Assembly (NCBI GenBank): GCA_964544395.1
Contig: CAZJAO010000002.1
Span: 5,071-69,070, forward strand
Reading direction: 5' to 3'
DNA length: 64,000 nt
Source: Candidatus Woesearchaeota archaeon
GTDB lineage: Archaea; Nanobdellota; Nanobdellia; Pacearchaeales; GW2011-AR1
Below the pieces are notes generated by a model that saw only the letters and a program-made list of their open reading frames with translations, made no database searches and was not told the origin of the DNA. Position numbers and translations under genes: made by a program. This document shows positions 2,298 to 50,345 of the stretch, one piece after another (the first letter of the stretch is position 1; every line of letters starts with the position of its first letter).

Positions 2298-3317
2298 TTA
2301 ATCTTTAGAAATAATCTCAACAAAACCTTTTTCTTTGATTACTTTTAGAACATCTTCAATTGCTTTTTTCATATTTGTGCTCTTTAGTATAAAGGCCGAA
2401 GCTTCTTTATGCCCTCCACCTCCAAAAGCAGTTGAATAAATAGTTGTGTCCAGGCCTTTGCTTCTAAATGAGCCTTTTATTTCACCATTGGATTCGGTAA
2501 GAGTAAAAATTAAATTAAGGCCTTTTATGTCCTGCATGCAGCCAATTCCCAACCTTATATCAGAAACATTTAATCCCAATTTTTCATATTCTTTCTTTGT
2601 TGCCCAGCTGTAAGCAACATCCTTTCCATTAATTTCTTTTTTCTCCATATTAGTCAATAAAAGCCCGTAGAGCTTTTTTAGATTCCAAGGGCTATTCATA
2701 ATAGGGTCATATAAATCTTTCTTGTAATTTAGTCCATTTCCCAAAAGAACAACAGCTTTCTTTAATGAGTCTATAGAATTACCATGGATAAAGAACGAAG
2801 TGTCTGTGCAGAGACCAATCATCAACCTTAATGATAATTCCCTGTCAAATTTGAATTTTATTTTATTAAAGAATTCAAATAGAACCGAACAACATGAAGG
2901 CAGGTCTGGATTTACATAATTTAAATTTCCATAATAGGAATTCGTGACGTGATGGTCAATGTTAATTACTTTTTTGGTTTTCAGTTTCTCTTTAAATTCT
3001 TCTGAAAACTCCAAGAAGCCATGATCTAAAAAGATAAGATGATCAAATTCACTTAAATCTAATTTCTCAATATCTACTCCAAATTCCACTTCTTTGCTAA
3101 AACTATAAGACTCCAGATTCTCGCTTAATCGGTCTTTGCTTATCAATCGAACACTAACCCCTGCCCTTTCGAGAACATATTTCATTGCGGTGCAAGAACC
3201 GAAAGAATCTCCGTCAGGACGTCCATGCAGAGTTAATAGAACTTTTTTTGATTTCCTCAATTCTTTCCAAATTTCTTTGAATTTGTTGTTTCTAACATCA
3301 TAAATCTGATTAAACAT
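2298..3317 (-). CDS. DHH-family phosphoesterase (NrnA-like nanoRNase/pAp phosphatase)
   Basis: It has the DHH motif (NIDHHVTNSYYG), an N-terminal HGRPDGDSFGS motif and a C-terminal DHHA1 GGGGH motif. Confidence 0.75.
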   Translation of the reverse strand: MFNQIYDVRNNKFKEIWKELRKSKKVLLTLHGRPDGDSFGSCTAMKYVLERAGVSVRLISKDRLSENLESYSFSKEVEFGVDIEKLDLSEFDHLIFLDHGFLEFSEEFKEKLKTKKVINIDHHVTNSYYGNLNYVNPDLPSCCSVLFEFFNKIKFKFDRELSLRLMIGLCTDTSFFIHGNSIDSLKKAVVLLGNGLNYKKDLYDPIMNSPWNLKKLYGLLLTNMEKKEINGKDVAYSWATKKEYEKLGLNVSDIRLGIGCMQDIKGLNLIFTLTESNGEIKGSFRSKGLDTTIYSTAFGGGGHKEASAFILKSTNMKKAIEDVLKVIKEKGFVEIISKD

Positions 3318-3352
3318 AATTTAGATTTCAATTTATTCTATTTAAAGATTTA

Positions 3353-3436
3353 TGCGGGAGACAGGATTCGGACCTGCGCAGGCACTAAGCCACAAGAGCC
3401 TTAATCTTGCCCGTTTGACCACTCCGGCACCCCCGC
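3353..3436 (-). tRNA. tRNA-Leu (class II, long variable arm). The anticodon loop TTAAGGC reads as AAG in the only 5-bp stem register; TAA is possible if the register is shifted.
   Basis: The reverse complement GCGGGGGTGCCGGAGTGGTCAAACGGGCAAGATTAAGGCTCTTGTGGCTTAGTGCCTGCGCAGGTCCGAATCCTGTCTCCCGCA folds as a cloverleaf. It has a 7-bp acceptor stem, a variable stem-loop and a T-arm GCAGG/TCCGAAT/CCTGT. Confidence 0.7.
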
Positions 3437-3498
3437 ATGTTTTTCTTAAAATATTGGTATATAAAAAGTTTTATAAATGTCTATGGACAGAGAATTTT

Positions 3499-3611
3499 GA
3501 AGACGGCCATAGTAAAAGGGAAATACCTGGTCTCATTCCGAACCCAGAAGTTAAGCCTTTTACGTTGATGGTGCTAGTTTCTAAAAGAAGCTAAGTCATT
3601 AAGCTGTCTTC
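3499..3611 (+). rRNA. rrf: 5S ribosomal RNA (orphan, not linked to 16S/23S in this window)
   Basis: Loop C/helix III signature: CCTGGTCTCATTCCGAACCCAGAAGTTAAGCC. A 9-bp terminal helix forms between GAAGACGGC (5') and GCTGTCTTC (3'). Confidence 0.7.
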
Positions 3612-3613
3612 TA

Positions 3614-3628
3614 TATTTTTATAAAAAG
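3614..3628 (+). promoter_or_regulatory. TATA-box-like element (tttttataaaaa) about 28 nt upstream of the ATG at 3647.
   Basis: AT-rich TATA-like motif at archaeal promoter spacing. Confidence 0.3.
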
Positions 3629-3646
3629 TACTGATCTATCTTTCTC

Positions 3647-3910
3647 ATGAAAAAAGTTTCCAAGAAAGAAGCTCAAAAACAGATTGAAGATTTTTTTCTA
3701 AATATAAAGAGTAAGATCCCTAGTGAAATAAAGAAAATTCAAAATCTTTCTAAGAATAATAATATTAAATTAGGTAATAAAAGAAAATCTTTTTGCAAGA
3801 AATGCCTGAATCCTTACAATAATTCCAAGATAAAAATCAGTAATGGAATAAAATCCGTTGAATGTAAGAACTGTGGCTATAAATCTCGATGGAAAATTAA
3901 GCTTTCTTAA
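3647..3910 (+). CDS. RNase P protein component 4 (Rpp21/Rpr2-like) candidate
   Basis: A basic helical N-terminus is followed by a zinc ribbon: FCKKCLNPY...VECKNCGY. This resembles Rpp21 (CKKCxxxLxPGxN...C.ECG). Confidence 0.5.
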   Translation: MKKVSKKEAQKQIEDFFLNIKSKIPSEIKKIQNLSKNNNIKLGNKRKSFCKKCLNPYNNSKIKISNGIKSVECKNCGYKSRWKIKLS

Positions 3911-4094
3911 ATTTTCCTACAAGTTCAATCAAGTCTGTTTGTCCTAGGAACACAGATCTGCAGCAATATCTTTCAATTCCAAGCTCATCTAGTACTTTGC
4001 CGGATTTTTCTCCGCTTGCTACTCTTCTTTTGTATTCTTCCCATAAATGTCCTACGGGTTTGCCACAAGAAAAGCATCGTACTGGAATTATCAT
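3897..4094 (-). CDS. rpoN: DNA-directed RNA polymerase subunit N (Rpb10 homolog)
   Basis: MIIPVRCFSCGKPVG...YCCRSVFL is a near-canonical RpoN sequence. Confidence 0.85.
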   Translation of the reverse strand: MIIPVRCFSCGKPVGHLWEEYKRRVASGEKSGKVLDELGIERYCCRSVFLGQTDLIELVGKFKKA

Positions 4095-7733: not shown

Positions 7734-7817
7734 GCAGGGATAGCGAAGTGGTCAAACGCGCGGGACTCAAGATCCCGTCCCTTAGTGGGTTCGGAGGTTC
7801 GAATCCTCTTCCCTGCA
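7734..7817 (+). tRNA. tRNA-Leu (anticodon CAA), class II
   Basis: Acceptor GCAGGGA/TCCCTGC. Anticodon arm CGGGA-CTCAAGA-TCCCG. Variable stem-loop present. T-loop GGAGG-TTCGAAT-CCTCT. Confidence 0.85.
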
Positions 7818-7853
7818 TCATGGCTCTTTAGAGACGTGCGATTGCATTTTTAT

Positions 7854-7928
7854 GCGTCCGTAGCTCAGCCTGGATAGAGCACCTCCGTCCTAAGGAGGGG
7901 GTCGTAGGTTCAAATCCTATCGGGCGCA
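7854..7928 (+). tRNA. tRNA-Arg (anticodon CCT)
   Basis: Acceptor GCGTCCG/CGGGCGC. Anticodon arm CCTCC-GTCCTAA-GGAGG. T-arm GTAGG-TTCAAAT-CCTAT. Confidence 0.8.
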
Positions 7929-7984
7929 TTCCTATTTGGCTGCACAGCAAATCTTTAAAACTCTATTATAATACATATTTTTAA

Positions 7985-8056
7985 GCGTGGGTAGTATAGC
8001 GGTTAGTATATCTGCCTTCCAAGCAGATGGTCCGGGTCCGACTCCCGGCCTACGCA
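7985..8056 (+). tRNA. tRNA-Gly (anticodon TCC)
   Basis: Acceptor GCGTGGG/CCTACGC. Anticodon arm TCTGC-CTTCCAA-GCAGA. T-arm CCGGG-TCCGACT-CCCGG. Confidence 0.75.
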
Positions 8057-44213: not shown

Positions 44214-44501
44214 TTACTCTATGTTAAAGCCCATCTTTTCAAGGATAGGTTTTATCCTTCGTAGGTGATCTCCCTGAAGCTCTACGGAATTCCCCTCGAA
44301 AGTTCCGCCGCAGGCAAGTTCGTTCTTCAGGTCTTTTGCAACCTTTCTGACGTCCACGCCTTTGTCGAAACCTGAGACAATCGTAACGGTTTTTCCGTAC
44401 TTCTTCTTGTCTAAGGTCACCCGTATCTTCTGACCGGCCTTAACAATCTGTTCACAAACGCATGCCTCTAAAGGCAATCCGCATTTTGGACATATATTCA
44501 T
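44214..44501 (-). CDS. sui1: Translation initiation factor SUI1 (aSUI1/eIF1 family, with an N-terminal zinc knuckle)
   Basis: ICPKCGLPLEACVCE...IRVTLDKKKYGKTVTIVSGFD...LKNELACGGTFEGNSVELQGDH. Confidence 0.8.
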   Translation of the reverse strand: MNICPKCGLPLEACVCEQIVKAGQKIRVTLDKKKYGKTVTIVSGFDKGVDVRKVAKDLKNELACGGTFEGNSVELQGDHLRRIKPILEKMGFNIE

Positions 44502-44670: not shown

Positions 44671-45335
44671 TTTTTGCTGTGTTTCTTTGTTTTAATTGGT
44701 TCTTCTTTGAATTGAGCATTAGCCCTTAGCTTTTCAATTAATTCATCATTGACTATGATTTTATCATAAATTTTTGCATCGGGAGCCATGATTCCAACCT
44801 TTACTCCAACTGTTCCCGGTCTTGTTTCTGCTCTTGATTGTGCTCTATCGACTACTTTTGCACTTTCTCCGGTTTTCTTCAAATAACCTTGAGCGAATCT
44901 CCATGACTTTGCTCTTGCGCCAGGAAGCTTTCCACTCAATCTGATTTCAGCACCGAGAGCCTTTGCCTCGATTATTTTTTGCAAAGTTCTGTATGCAATT
45001 ACCTTGAATCTCAAAGGACCAAATCTTTCTAATCCTAATGCAATTTCATCAGCAGTTATTTGAGCATCAAATTCAGGATGCCTGATTTCTTCTATTTCAA
45101 GATGAGGGTTTTCCAATTTGAATTTTGTTTTCAATATTCTTGTCAATTCATCAATTCTTTCTCCGCCTCTGCCGATAACCAAACCGGTTTTATGTGTAGA
45201 GATAATTATCTTTTCTCCGACGGGGGTGTACTCTATTTGAACTCTGCTGACTTTTCCTCTACCAACTGAGCTCTTTACAAATTCCTTGATTGCAAATTCA
45301 TCTTTCTTGAATTTTACTACGTTTTTTTCTTCCAT
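44667..45335 (-). CDS. rps3: 30S ribosomal protein S3 (uS3)
   Basis: KH domain (GLVIGRGGERIDELTRIL) plus the S3 C-terminal domain. Confidence 0.9.
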   Translation of the reverse strand: MEEKNVVKFKKDEFAIKEFVKSSVGRGKVSRVQIEYTPVGEKIIISTHKTGLVIGRGGERIDELTRILKTKFKLENPHLEIEEIRHPEFDAQITADEIALGLERFGPLRFKVIAYRTLQKIIEAKALGAEIRLSGKLPGARAKSWRFAQGYLKKTGESAKVVDRAQSRAETRPGTVGVKVGIMAPDAKIYDKIIVNDELIEKLRANAQFKEEPIKTKKHSKK

Positions 45336-45934
45336 TATTTATTTTTCTCCTGTTTCTTTATTTTATTTTTGGCGACTATTCTTATATGTGTCCTCTTTCT
45401 TCTGACTGCACCAAACTTTCCGAATGGTCTTTCTCCAAGATTTGCAACAGCTTCAACGATGATTGGTTCTTCAATTCCATTCACGTTTGAATTTCCTTTC
45501 AAAGTTTTTAGCAATACGATGAAATGTTCAGCAGCATTTCTTGGATATCTTCCTGACATTATACCTTTTCCTTTTCTATGAGGTATCTCTCCTTTCATTG
45601 GAACAACTTTCTTTTGTACAATGACTAATTCTAAATCGCTGATTGCATCTTCAATGCTTTTATTCTTGATGAACTTGCAAACATAAGAGCTTGTCTTTGT
45701 TGAAAGGTGAGCATTGAATGAGTTCACAACTGCTTCTTTCTTAGGCTTTCTTGTTTCTTTCTTAGCTTCTTTTGCAGTTTCAGGCTTAGCTTTCTCGAGT
45801 TTCTTTTCTATTTGTTCATCTATTTTCTCTTCTTTCTCTGCAATTTTTTCCGGGACTCCGCTCCTCTCTATATCTTCGATTACCTGTTTCTTAGTTTCTT
45901 CTTTTTCTTCGTGTTTATGTTCGTGTTCTGCCAT
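45335..45934 (-). CDS. rpl22: 50S ribosomal protein L22 (uL22) with an N-terminal Lys/Glu-rich extension of about 70 aa.
   Basis: The C-terminal 130 aa carry the uL22 fold motifs (SYVCKFIKNKSIEDAI...GRYPRNAAEHF...RTHIRIV). The N-terminus is KEKE low complexity. Confidence 0.85.
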   Translation of the reverse strand: MAEHEHKHEEKEETKKQVIEDIERSGVPEKIAEKEEKIDEQIEKKLEKAKPETAKEAKKETRKPKKEAVVNSFNAHLSTKTSSYVCKFIKNKSIEDAISDLELVIVQKKVVPMKGEIPHRKGKGIMSGRYPRNAAEHFIVLLKTLKGNSNVNGIEEPIIVEAVANLGERPFGKFGAVRRKRTHIRIVAKNKIKKQEKNK

Positions 45935-45935
45935 G

Positions 45936-46283
45936 TTATATTCCGGCCTCCATTAATGCAGTATTAAAAAAATAATAGTTTTGCTCTGATGGCCAATAAG
46001 ATTTATCTAAAATTTTCTTTCTAATTCTTATATTTCCATCTTCAATTGAAATATCACTCGCATTATTTGCTCTGTTGACTGCCAAATGTCGAATAGATTT
46101 CCTTCCATCTTTTAAATCAACATCTCTGACTGCAAAATCGTAAAAAGATCCAATTGACCCGCAATAAAATGCTTTTAATTGTTCGCCGTTACATTCTATC
46201 TGAACAACATCTCCCCGTAAAAGCAAGGCTAAATCCTCTAACGTTTCTAACTTCTGTATCTTTGGTTGTGTTATTGTTGTCAT
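45936..46283 (-). CDS. Hypothetical protein of 115 aa embedded in the ribosomal operon between rps19 and rpl22.
   Basis: The ORF is intact and in operon polarity. It lies 2 nt after the rps19 stop and 1 nt before the rpl22 ATG. It shows no r-protein-like basic composition and no recognisable family. Confidence 0.45.
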   Translation of the reverse strand: MTTITQPKIQKLETLEDLALLLRGDVVQIECNGEQLKAFYCGSIGSFYDFAVRDVDLKDGRKSIRHLAVNRANNASDISIEDGNIRIRKKILDKSYWPSEQNYYFFNTALMEAGI

Positions 46284-46285
46284 TT

Positions 46286-46705
46286 TTATTTCTTGGATTT
46301 TGATTTACTTCCTTTAGTTGCTCCAACACCTGCACTTCCGTGCTTGACCTTTGTTCTTGTCAATGCAAATTCTCCAAGTCTGTGTCCGAGCATGTTTCCT
46401 GTTATTTCAATCGGCTCAAAGACTTTTCCAGTGTGAATGCTAATTCTCATGCCAACCATTTTTGGGACAATTACTAAATCTCTGCTATGAGTCTTGACCT
46501 GCTTGTTCTTTGAAATTTTCTTTTGCGATCTTGCAATGAACTTTTCTATTTCATTGAACTGTCTTAATGCTGCTCGTCTCTGTCTTGATTTGAGATATTG
46601 GGCAAATTCTCTGACTTCTAATGCTTTCAATTCATCGAGGCTCTTGCCTCTAAACATGAATTCTTTTTTCTTTACTTCAATTATATTCGTTTCTTCTTTT
46701 GCCAT
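46286..46705 (-). CDS. rps19: 30S ribosomal protein S19 (uS19)
   Basis: FMFRGKSLDELKAL...GMRISIHTGKVFEPIEITGNMLGHRLGEFALTR. Confidence 0.9.
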   Translation of the reverse strand: MAKEETNIIEVKKKEFMFRGKSLDELKALEVREFAQYLKSRQRRAALRQFNEIEKFIARSQKKISKNKQVKTHSRDLVIVPKMVGMRISIHTGKVFEPIEITGNMLGHRLGEFALTRTKVKHGSAGVGATKGSKSKSKK

Positions 46706-47730: not shown

Positions 47731-48528
47731 TCATTTGATTCTCACTTCAAGATCTTTAATTGCTTTTTCAGTATACAATGTTAATCTGCCCAATCCGCCA
47801 TTTGCCAAATCTGCAAGGTCGACGCTGTTAGCCTTTCTTATATCAAAACCGTTCATCTCTAATTTCTCTTCATTGCCGATTACGATAAGTAATCCTGCGC
47901 TTTTCTTGTATTTTCTTCCTCTTGCTTTTCCTTTTCCGCTTCTTACACTTCTTTTCTGCAAGCCGACTTCGAAAAGTTGCTTTCCAAGTATTTTTTTAAG
48001 GCTCGAAATTAATTCTTTTGTTTTGCCGAATTTCAAATCAGAAACTATCAAAGGCAACTGATGCTCAATTTTTTCTTCGCGGAGTGTGCTGTATTTCTTT
48101 TTCAATTCTTCAACACTTGCAGTTGAACTTAATGCAGACAGTAATGCAATCTTCATTTCTTTTTTGTTTATCTTTGGAAGCTCCATCATTGACAAAATAT
48201 GCGGAGGATGCGCTCTCATTCCGCCTCTTGTTCCTGAAACTTCTGCTCCTACCCAATTGAATTGCGTTCCTCTTCTAGACATGATTTTTCTTGGAATTCT
48301 GGAACCACCTCTTCCATAACCGCTTCTCCATACATGTCTTCTATGATTAACTTTTCCTCTTGCTGCATGCTGCTTTCCAGCGACGGGTGAAGGTGAATAC
48401 GGCTGCTTTTTCTTTTTAGCTTCAAGTATCTTGGCAACAAGGTCTTCTCTTATTCTTGCAGAGAAGAAACTAGGCAAGTCAATTTCTTTTATGCTTTTTC
48501 CCTGATTATCTAATAAATGTGTTTTCAT
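47731..48528 (-). CDS. rpl4: 50S ribosomal protein L4 (uL4/L1e)
   Basis: PSPVAGKQHAARGKVNHRRHVWRSGYGRGGSRIPRK. Confidence 0.85.
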   Translation of the reverse strand: MKTHLLDNQGKSIKEIDLPSFFSARIREDLVAKILEAKKKKQPYSPSPVAGKQHAARGKVNHRRHVWRSGYGRGGSRIPRKIMSRRGTQFNWVGAEVSGTRGGMRAHPPHILSMMELPKINKKEMKIALLSALSSTASVEELKKKYSTLREEKIEHQLPLIVSDLKFGKTKELISSLKKILGKQLFEVGLQKRSVRSGKGKARGRKYKKSAGLLIVIGNEEKLEMNGFDIRKANSVDLADLANGGLGRLTLYTEKAIKDLEVRIK

Positions 48529-48830
48529 TGTGTGTAATATCTCCTTTTAACTCTTTCTTTAAGAATATCTGCTGCAACACTCTCAACGGTATGAACCCTG
48601 AATAGTTTCATAATGCCCTCAAAAGTATTAATATGGATTCCTGAACCTGCTTTTTTTTGTCTCTCATACTTATTATTGTATGTATTAGTAAATAGTAGCT
48701 CATCTAATTCATCACTATTCATTGCATCATCATCTGTTTTTGAAGAAGCCATTTTTACATATGCTTTTCTATCTATTACATAAACTCCTTGCCTGTTCAA
48801 CATCATTGGTATAGTGTCTAAATTTTTCAT
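48525..48830 (-). CDS. Hypothetical protein of 101 aa embedded between rpl3 and rpl4.
   Basis: Its ATG overlaps the rpl3 TGA (ATGA at 48827-48830). Its TGA overlaps the rpl4 ATG (ATGA at 48525-48528). No recognisable family. It is not S10-like. Confidence 0.45.
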   Translation of the reverse strand: MKNLDTIPMMLNRQGVYVIDRKAYVKMASSKTDDDAMNSDELDELLFTNTYNNKYERQKKAGSGIHINTFEGIMKLFRVHTVESVAADILKERVKRRYYTQ

Positions 48831-49877: not shown

Positions 49878-50345
49878 TTAAGGCGAAAAAGACTTTAACC
49901 ATTCCAGATATCGGGGAGCCTCCGGGCTGTTTTCAGCCGGAGCCCAGGGTGCAAAATCTTTGTGGGTTAAAGAATCATATTTTCCTTCAATAATTTCATA
50001 GACTACTGCTTCTGGCGATATAACTGCAACACCATGCCAGGTTCTCGGAGGAATTTCGACTATCCTATCTTTTCCGGATTCCTCGAGTAAAACTTTTTGT
50101 TCTATTTCTCCAACGTCATTAAAGGTAAAAATAGCCATTTTCCCGTAGAGAATTGAAAATAATTCAATCTTATCCGGGTTTTCATGTTTATGTGGCTGAA
50201 AATAAGTATCAGACAGGCCAGCATTGATCATTCTTTGAAGAACTTCATCCGGCTGATGGAAACAATAAATTGCCCTTTTTCTGGGCGATGTCCTTGCTTT
50301 TTGTAGTGTTTCCTCTAAAATCTTAGGGGTTAATGTTACTATCAT
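49878..50345 (-). CDS. Cupin-fold metalloprotein (WbuC-like)
   Basis: About 155 aa with a His-rich cupin core (FHQPDE...HKHENPDKIELFSILYGK...WHGV). Confidence 0.35.
   Translation of the reverse strand: MIVTLTPKILEETLQKARTSPRKRAIYCFHQPDEVLQRMINAGLSDTYFQPHKHENPDKIELFSILYGKMAIFTFNDVGEIEQKVLLEESGKDRIVEIPPRTWHGVAVISPEAVVYEIIEGKYDSLTHKDFAPWAPAENSPEAPRYLEWLKSFSP

Follow-up and report, generated by a model that had tools for sequence, protein, structure and literature searches.

How does an additional gene come to lie inside one of the most conserved gene arrays of prokaryotes, and what kind of gene is it? The array L3-L4-L23-L2-S19-L22-S3 is routinely assumed to be uninterrupted. In the stretch of DNA analyzed here (the window: 64,000 nt from Candidatus Woesearchaeota archaeon, assembly GCA_964544395.1, contig CAZJAO010000002.1), an open reading frame (ORF) of 115 codons, ORF115, is found between the ribosomal protein (r-protein) genes rps19 and rpl22. 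The order on the minus strand is L3-ORF101-L4-L23-L2-S19-ORF115-L22-S3-L29-SUI1-S17-L14-L24-S4e-L5. A first-pass annotation, made from the sequence of the window, had assigned the locus to an S10-spc operon; this stands insofar as it is an r-protein cluster, although the archaeal L3-led cluster lacks S10 and the name is only loosely right. It had also reported an intact, co-oriented ORF filling the S19/L22 junction with spacers of 1-2 nt, which was confirmed at 45936-46283 on the minus strand. The analysis points to a genuine, dispensable accessory gene that is carried as a promoter-less passenger of the L3-L5 r-protein operon, a reading to which a probability of about 0.6 was assigned. The features at the junction are:

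46286..46705, minus strand: rps19 (uS19), upstream neighbor (PF00203, E 3.5e-25; NF003121, E 2.9e-42)
45936..46283, minus strand: ORF115, ATG start, 115 aa, TAA stop; founding member of family A
45966..45972, minus strand: run of seven T inside ORF115 (codons Y-Y-F-F-N), the sole run of at least six T on the 12.4 kb sense strand of the operon
45947..45951, minus strand: GGAGG, a Shine-Dalgarno (SD)-like motif encoded by the final codons of ORF115 (ATG-GAG-GCC, M-E-A), at a distance of 12 nt from the L22 ATG that follows
45335..45934, minus strand: rpl22 (uL22), downstream neighbor (NF003260, E 4.6e-18; Pfam match at 3.9e-6, slightly below the cut-off)

ORF115 as a Gene

ORF115 is separated from rps19 by 2 nt (46284-46285) and from rpl22 by 1 nt (45935). 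Same strand, few-nucleotide spacers on both sides and no internal signals: this is the arrangement of a gene embedded in an operon. On the sense strand T makes up 0.23 and A 0.42 of the bases and, with G and C estimated from the G+C content of the region, stop codons account for about 8% of random triplets; 115 open codons would therefore arise by chance with a P of roughly 1e-4 per start. ORF115 is 100% identical at the DNA level across the 10 independently assembled contigs that were compared (ENA, JGI and Logan; 23 contigs in the index), which excludes an assembly artefact. With the r-protein genes of the operon as reference, its codon adaptation index (CAI) is 0.682, against 0.669 ± 0.042 for 64 other ORFs of the window, while its out-of-frame and antisense readings fall below the in-frame value (0.57-0.61). 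Its G+C content at third codon positions (GC3) is 0.237, against 0.292 ± 0.05 for the window ORFs. Codon usage, which the first-pass annotation had named as a check alongside synteny, is native, and together with three small homologs (see below) this identifies ORF115 as a real gene. The T run inside it could serve as a weak archaeal terminator; its presence is not significant, since about 0.4 runs of at least six T are expected from base composition.

The S19/L22 Junction in Related Genomes

One genome per GTDB species was sampled and scanned with the neighboring uS3, yielding 80 loci (three-digit L numbers below), nearly all of them from metagenome-assembled genomes (MAGs) labelled Nanoarchaeota, Pacearchaeota or Woesearchaeota (DPANN). 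CAVZZS010000011 (L015) is the nearest relative, with 95% identity in uS3 and an operon that is about 83% identical in nucleotides. In L015 to L020 and in L022, rps19 and rpl22 are spaced by 2-5 nt with no insert, the exception being L016, where a 114-nt non-coding spacer is found. S19/L22 is free of an insert in 74 of 77 related genomes, and the other three hold unrelated ORFs or no intact ORF, which supports the earlier proposal of an insertion into an otherwise fixed junction. Absent from its nearest sampled relatives, ORF115 is an accessory and dispensable gene.

The point of entry can be read from the junction itself. In insert-free relatives the sequence runs S19-TAA-AA-ATG-L22, and the L015 junction (...AAGAAATAA, followed by AA and then ATG) is identical to the rps19 sequence that now precedes ORF115; the TAA and the AA spacer are the restart site which ORF115 now uses. 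When the window was aligned with L015, nucleotide identity was about 83% on both sides of a clean gap at ORF115. The alignment is interrupted at three gene-sized places: ORF115 with the hypervariable 5' end of L22, ORF101, and a DUF6016 gene. An import of the flanks was considered and rejected, as flank identity to L015 is uniform and no clear recombination tract was seen. At its N-terminus the uL22 protein itself is extended by some 60 Glu/Lys-rich, highly variable residues (45750-45934, minus strand), and the 5' 100 nt or so of rpl22 could not be aligned at the DNA level even with L015.

Putative Translation Signals

No SD-like motif belonging to ORF115 was found at local spacing. Its ATG occupies the exact ancestral start position of L22, and it would therefore inherit the restart or coupling that formerly served L22. 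The displaced rpl22 is in turn preceded by the GGAGG in the 3' end of ORF115, whose 12-nt spacing equals that of the native GGAG motifs before L4, S3, L14 and S4e. GGAGG stands at the homologous position in the family members of L012, L045 and L024, and L011 has GGCGG. At the native S19/L22 junction an SD-like motif is present in 0 of 37 relatives. When the SD-poor junctions (L2, S19, L22 and L24) were taken together, the motif was found in 9 of 155 native cases vs 8 of 18 downstream of an insert (Fisher P 3.8e-5), so inserts tend to give the displaced gene an SD. The 2-nt and 1-nt spacers leave no room for a promoter or terminator of ORF115's own; a promoter inside the S19 coding sequence was not searched for. 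Co-transcription and translational coupling, as first proposed, would be the only plausible route of expression given this placement.

Homologs of ORF115

A word-indexed search of 5.8 billion clusters retrieved only ORF115 itself. An exhaustive HMMER scan with ORF115 over 1.84 billion representatives detected P0005 (110 aa, 41% identity, E 1.2e-5) and P0007 (117 aa, 34% identity, E 1e-4), both of which align with it end to end. Conserved blocks are shared by the three proteins at the N-terminus (K.Q.L...EDL.LL..GD) and at the C-terminus (L..AG[IL]-stop). P0006, P0008 and P0009, giant Ig-like, RTX or low-complexity repeat proteins, were treated as spurious because their E-values arise from summed repeats. 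A further member of family A, detected only within the r-protein operon loci (phmmer E 2.8e-5), is encoded in L045 (4801-5340), where an IclR-type winged helix (PF09339, E 1.7e-7) precedes the family A domain in a fusion protein. Every known homolog sits inside an r-protein operon of related Nanoarchaeota (MAGs labelled Pace- or Woesearchaeota), and no junction is shared: ORF115 lies at S19/L22, P0005 at L23/L2, P0007 at L22/S3 and the L045 member at L24/S4e. The synteny check therefore yielded homologs in related operons at other junctions and none at S19/L22. No relatives of ORF115 were found in viral, plasmid, PHROG or PADLOC (defense) collections.

The contig of P0005 (L011) belongs to a sister lineage of the window organism, with L2 98.6% identical in amino acids and 93.7% in nucleotides. 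This lineage carries its family A gene at L23/L2 and not at S19/L22; in the window, L23/L2 keeps the ancestral overlapping TAATG, as in L015 and most relatives. The mismatches flanking the L011 insert are spread evenly, except for four in the last 14 nt of L23. Two very close lineages thus differ by the clean insertion of a divergent family A member.

A four-member cluster at L3/L4, family B, has a C-terminal Y..LN..L...G motif in common with family A. Profile searches added eleven family B members, and all those checked are located at L3/L4. When families A and B were compared with hhalign, a full-length match was obtained (probability 71%, P 3.7e-5). Addition of family B to the alignment raised the AlphaFold2 (AF2) confidence for ORF115 from pLDDT 66 and pTM 0.61 to 76.6 and 0.70, with the topology unchanged. 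On these two grounds a relationship between the families is likely, albeit not proven. L074 (L2/S19) is possibly a remote relative of family A too, through a link weaker than that between A and B. Family A, tiny and fast-diverging, thus uses four junctions, or six if family B (L3/L4) and L074 (L2/S19) are counted. A single superfamily for all inserts was rejected: iterated HMM searches never grew beyond families A and B plus L074, and the remaining hhalign links among inserts were no better than shuffled controls.

A family with this distribution could also be a lineage-specific, non-essential ribosome-associated factor, such as an assembly helper, an r-protein chaperone or a modulator of translation or hibernation. 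Selection for co-expression with r-proteins would then have recruited the gene into the operon repeatedly. That the homologs from an unbiased search all lie in r-protein operons, at varied junctions, is a pattern typical of functional linkage, and the possible remote family B is stably retained at L3/L4 in a subclade. The predicted fold, a small beta-barrel, would also be compatible with such a factor. Yet no r-protein is a consistent neighbor, the nearest relatives live without the gene, no copy was detectable anywhere in 15 billion proteins, and no ribosome factor in Pfam or NCBIfam gave a match. Acidity tells both ways: an acidic protein beside very basic r-proteins would suit a chaperone-like role, while the composition of the ORF115 protein also speaks against a ribosome factor. 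Overall, this main rival of the passenger reading appears doubtful.

Inserts Across the L3-L5 Operon

The first-pass annotation had treated ORF115 as a one-off. This did not hold, as the same operon contains a second insertion, ORF101 (L3/L4), and the pattern extends across the clade. With a threshold of at least 150 nt between consecutive genes from L3 to L5, 43 of the 80 genomes have at least one gap, giving 84 gaps in total and a maximum of six per genome. Gaps occur at all L3-L5 junctions except L29/SUI1, and S19/L22 is among the rarest (3/77). A co-oriented ORF fills 73 of the 84 gaps, with spacings overwhelmingly of -4 nt (ATGA) or +1 nt; between L5 and L32e an additional 26 gaps were found. 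Comparison of 80 inserted proteins gave nine small clusters and 47 singletons, with a median isoelectric point (pI) of 6.9. Pfam matches were limited to an RNase T-like exonuclease (about 220 aa, L4/L23) and the helix-turn-helix of the L045 protein. Most clusters are junction-specific, the exceptions being family A and two others.

Turnover of inserts across the clade is fast. In the closest genome pairs (uS3 DNA identity 80-89%) the inserts are usually different and rarely common to both. Nonsynonymous divergence (dN) is 2-5 times as high in small inserts as in the r-proteins that flank them, and the exonuclease is constrained like the r-proteins; only the ranking of these figures is usable, since synonymous divergence (dS) is saturated for the insert families. 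Frames of 100 codons that remain open at dS>1 in AT-rich DNA argue that the inserts are translated and under some selection. Moreover, the prevalence of unrelated singletons, alongside the RNase T-like exonuclease, argues for a general insertion process rather than the specific recruitment that a ribosome-associated factor would entail.

The exonuclease gene (RNase T/DEDD type) was observed at L4/L23 in L044, L048, L050, L051, L067, L069 and L091 and also in L097 (1964-2596), with a dN/dS of 0.06-0.2 for the family. In L097, positions 2835-4025 hold L23, then about 0.9 kb without called genes, an 87-aa ORF and S3. L2, S19 and L22 are apparently missing or uncalled there, which may reflect a rearrangement or an assembly problem. 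In L086, paralogous ORFs of 88 and 89 aa occupy two junctions, L14/L24 and S4e/L5 (3994-4260 and 5582-5851). Their homology starts some 5 nt ahead of the ATG and ends with the stop codon, and is thus that of an ORF-exact duplication within the operon.

Several of these observations could also be explained by an actively mobile selfish cassette, which would copy itself into start/stop junctions in a homing-like or site-specific manner, alone or with a trans-acting enzyme. One family at four junctions, a sister lineage with a divergent copy elsewhere between clean flanks, the L086 duplication, the fast turnover and the position of the SD within the 3' end of the gene would all fit. Short repeats containing start and stop codons do flank some inserts (TAATATG in L011, ATGAAAA around ORF101), but these are explained by the obligatory stop and start codons and a common Lys second codon. 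No nuclease, recombinase or transposase motif, no terminal inverted repeats and no true target duplications were found, viral, plasmid and defense collections hold no relatives, and it is impossible for all 47 unrelated singletons to be autonomous. Such a cassette is quite improbable.

The Predicted Protein

In the AF2 model of ORF115, a short helix (residues 15-20) is followed by a small barrel of six to seven strands (26-87), and a conserved helix (100-112) lies at the C-terminus; a small beta-barrel plus C-terminal helix is thus predicted with moderate confidence. Its product would most likely use the barrel to bind a protein or nucleic acid partner. No matches were found in Pfam, NCBIfam, PHROGs or PADLOC (for Pfam and NCBIfam, none at E<=1), in agreement with the earlier statement that the protein belongs to no recognizable family. 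The statement that it lacks r-protein-like composition was likewise borne out: its pI is 5.8 (K+R 15, D+E 16), compared with 9.6-11.1 for the 13 r-proteins of the operon.

The remaining alternative is that ORF115 is a spurious ORF, a decaying pseudogene or a highly divergent version of a known r-protein of the eL14/KOW type. It has no annotation and no close homologs, and weak local KOW-like matches to L24 were obtained (hmmsearch E 0.05-8). Descent from a neighboring KOW r-protein (L24 or S4e) was however rejected, the matches being local, over 10-15 residues, with P about 0.05. When ORF115 was compared by hhalign with alignments of 14 L3-L5 operon genes (13 r-proteins and SUI1), P was at least 0.04 over at most 15 residues. 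Neither by sequence nor by fold did ORF115 significantly match any r-protein or assembly factor. The features of a core r-protein such as eL14 or uL24 (KOW), namely a profile match, strongly basic composition and conservation in close relatives, are all lacking, as are the PRC-barrel or RimP domain match and the genomic conservation of RimM and RimP. Further evidence against a spurious or divergent gene includes the intact frame, conserved homologs that align end to end, native codon usage and the confidence of the AF2 model once family sequences were added (pLDDT 77, pTM 0.70). This alternative therefore retains very little probability, and ORF115 is not a ribosomal protein in any recognizable sense.

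Origin and Maintenance of the Insert

The reading of ORF115 as a dispensable passenger of the operon can be set out as follows. The gene would have entered the S19/L22 junction as an ORF-exact unit. There it would gain strong constitutive expression without a promoter, by way of the coupling it inherited. The GGAGG in its 3' end would keep the essential downstream genes translated, and the insert may be tolerated since the initiation signal of L22 is restored. With essential, coupled genes on either side, it would probably resist imprecise deletion. Spread could occur by recombination through the conserved flanks. The first-pass annotation had offered two functional options, a lineage-specific ribosome-associated or assembly factor and a captured gene riding on the operon. 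The second fits better, given the absence from the nearest relatives, the differing junctions, the fast turnover and the acidic protein, while positive evidence for the first was not obtained.

Several observations weigh against the passenger reading. Homologs confined to r-protein operons are hard to square with a random passenger and hint at a translation-linked function or at targeted insertion; the survey itself covered the r-protein operon only. No insertion signatures were found: neither terminal repeats, target duplications beyond start/stop-codon microhomology, an integrase nor a nuclease. In addition, no repeats bracket the insert, and Rfam at a permissive threshold returned nothing. 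All population copies of ORF115 are identical and carry no variation from which selection could be measured. Co-transcription and coupling are inferred from the 1-2 nt spacers alone. Lastly, the GGAGG may have travelled with ORF115 or may have evolved after the insertion.

A more speculative reading, unlikely as matters stand, extends the passenger reading from one gene to the whole locus. The Pacearchaeota-type r-protein operon would be a habitat of undescribed, promoter-less, ORF-exact cassettes, which move between start/stop junctions and between lineages via conserved flanks, supply the displaced gene with an SD and yield strain-specific proteins at r-protein stoichiometry. If this were true, the products might be accessory ribosome modulators in host-dependent archaea, and their clearest mobile example would be the ORF115 family with its four to six junctions.

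Other Features of the Window

The remaining features are:

48525..48830, minus strand: ORF101, unknown gene at L3/L4 that overlaps each neighbor by ATGA; unrelated to ORF115
49878-50345, minus strand: DUF6016 gene immediately preceding L3; a TATA-like TTTATAA lies some 25 nt ahead of its ATG
44214-44501, minus strand: SUI1/aIF1 between L29 and S17, of anomalous composition, GC 0.45 and GC3 0.51 (genome 0.29 ± 0.05)
3499-3612, plus strand: 5S rRNA, with an opposite-strand tRNA just upstream (region 3353-3612)
7734-8056, plus strand: cluster of three tRNAs

ORF101 is a singleton cluster with no family match and is absent from L015-L020; its 3' end provides AAAGGAG before L4. Neither L015 nor any of the 63 related loci in which L3 is included has the DUF6016 gene, which is a third lineage-specific gene at the operon. 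SUI1 is present at L29/S17 in all loci that cover the junction (76/80), and its GC3 is above that of its neighbors in 73 of 76 related genomes.

Comparison with Known Systems

A full-text literature search turned up no account of genes inserted into the r-protein operons of DPANN archaea, which is not proof of novelty. In this DPANN clade the array is a hotspot of gene gain and loss: between one and six additional small genes, nearly all without a known function, are present in about half of the 80 genomes. Should the pattern prove wider, it would show how genomes with few promoters and a strong deletion bias can still acquire and express new genes. A set of fast-evolving proteins would then be made together with ribosomes, and these would be candidates for accessory translation factors or for symbiosis or conflict proteins. 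Caution would also be needed in pipelines that rely on r-protein synteny (binning, phylogeny and gene calling), and the SD hand-over would show what is required for an insert to be tolerated in an essential, coupled operon.

Transposons, insertion sequences (IS) and miniature inverted-repeat elements (MITEs) are recognized by terminal inverted repeats, target-site duplications or a transposase, none of which was found here; identity at the junctions is limited to stop and start codons. A closer parallel is offered by free-standing homing endonuclease genes, such as the seg and mob genes of phage T4, which spread by "intronless homing". Like them, ORF115 and its homologs are sporadic between highly conserved genes, one family occupies different sites, and the conserved flanks could mediate spread by recombination. 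However, no family member matched a LAGLIDADG, GIY-YIG, HNH, His-Cys or PD-(D/E)xK nuclease in Pfam or PHROG. Unlike homing endonuclease genes, ORF115 encodes only 115 aa, shows no clear co-conversion of its flanks and has neighboring inserts that are mostly unrelated to each other.

At the level of the protein, the predicted barrel may be compared with small RNA- or ribosome-binding proteins of the SH3, Tudor, KOW or PRC-like type, including RimM, RimP, bL19, eL14 and the Mtr4 KOW domain. ORF115 differs from these in giving no profile match, in being acidic rather than basic and in having an extra conserved C-terminal helix (Y..LN..L). With regard to position, it resembles SUI1/aIF1 in being a non-ribosomal gene within the r-protein cluster, and in other archaea Rpp29, SecY and Adk are stable passengers of this kind. 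Passengers of the SUI1/aIF1 type are ancient, fixed in position and widely conserved, with known roles linked to translation or secretion, whereas ORF115 is of recent date, is missing from close relatives and belongs to a family without a fixed position.

The last comparison is with phage "morons", extra genes found between conserved genes in the late operons of lambdoid phages, which bring their own promoter and terminator. Inserts of the ORF115 type are likewise small, sporadic and unrelated, are placed exactly between the conserved, co-oriented genes of an operon with strong expression and vary in presence between close relatives. They differ in other respects: ORF115 is fitted in with spacers of 1-2 nt, without promoter or terminator, and hands an SD-like motif to the gene downstream, and its host locus is a cellular r-protein operon rather than a phage genome.
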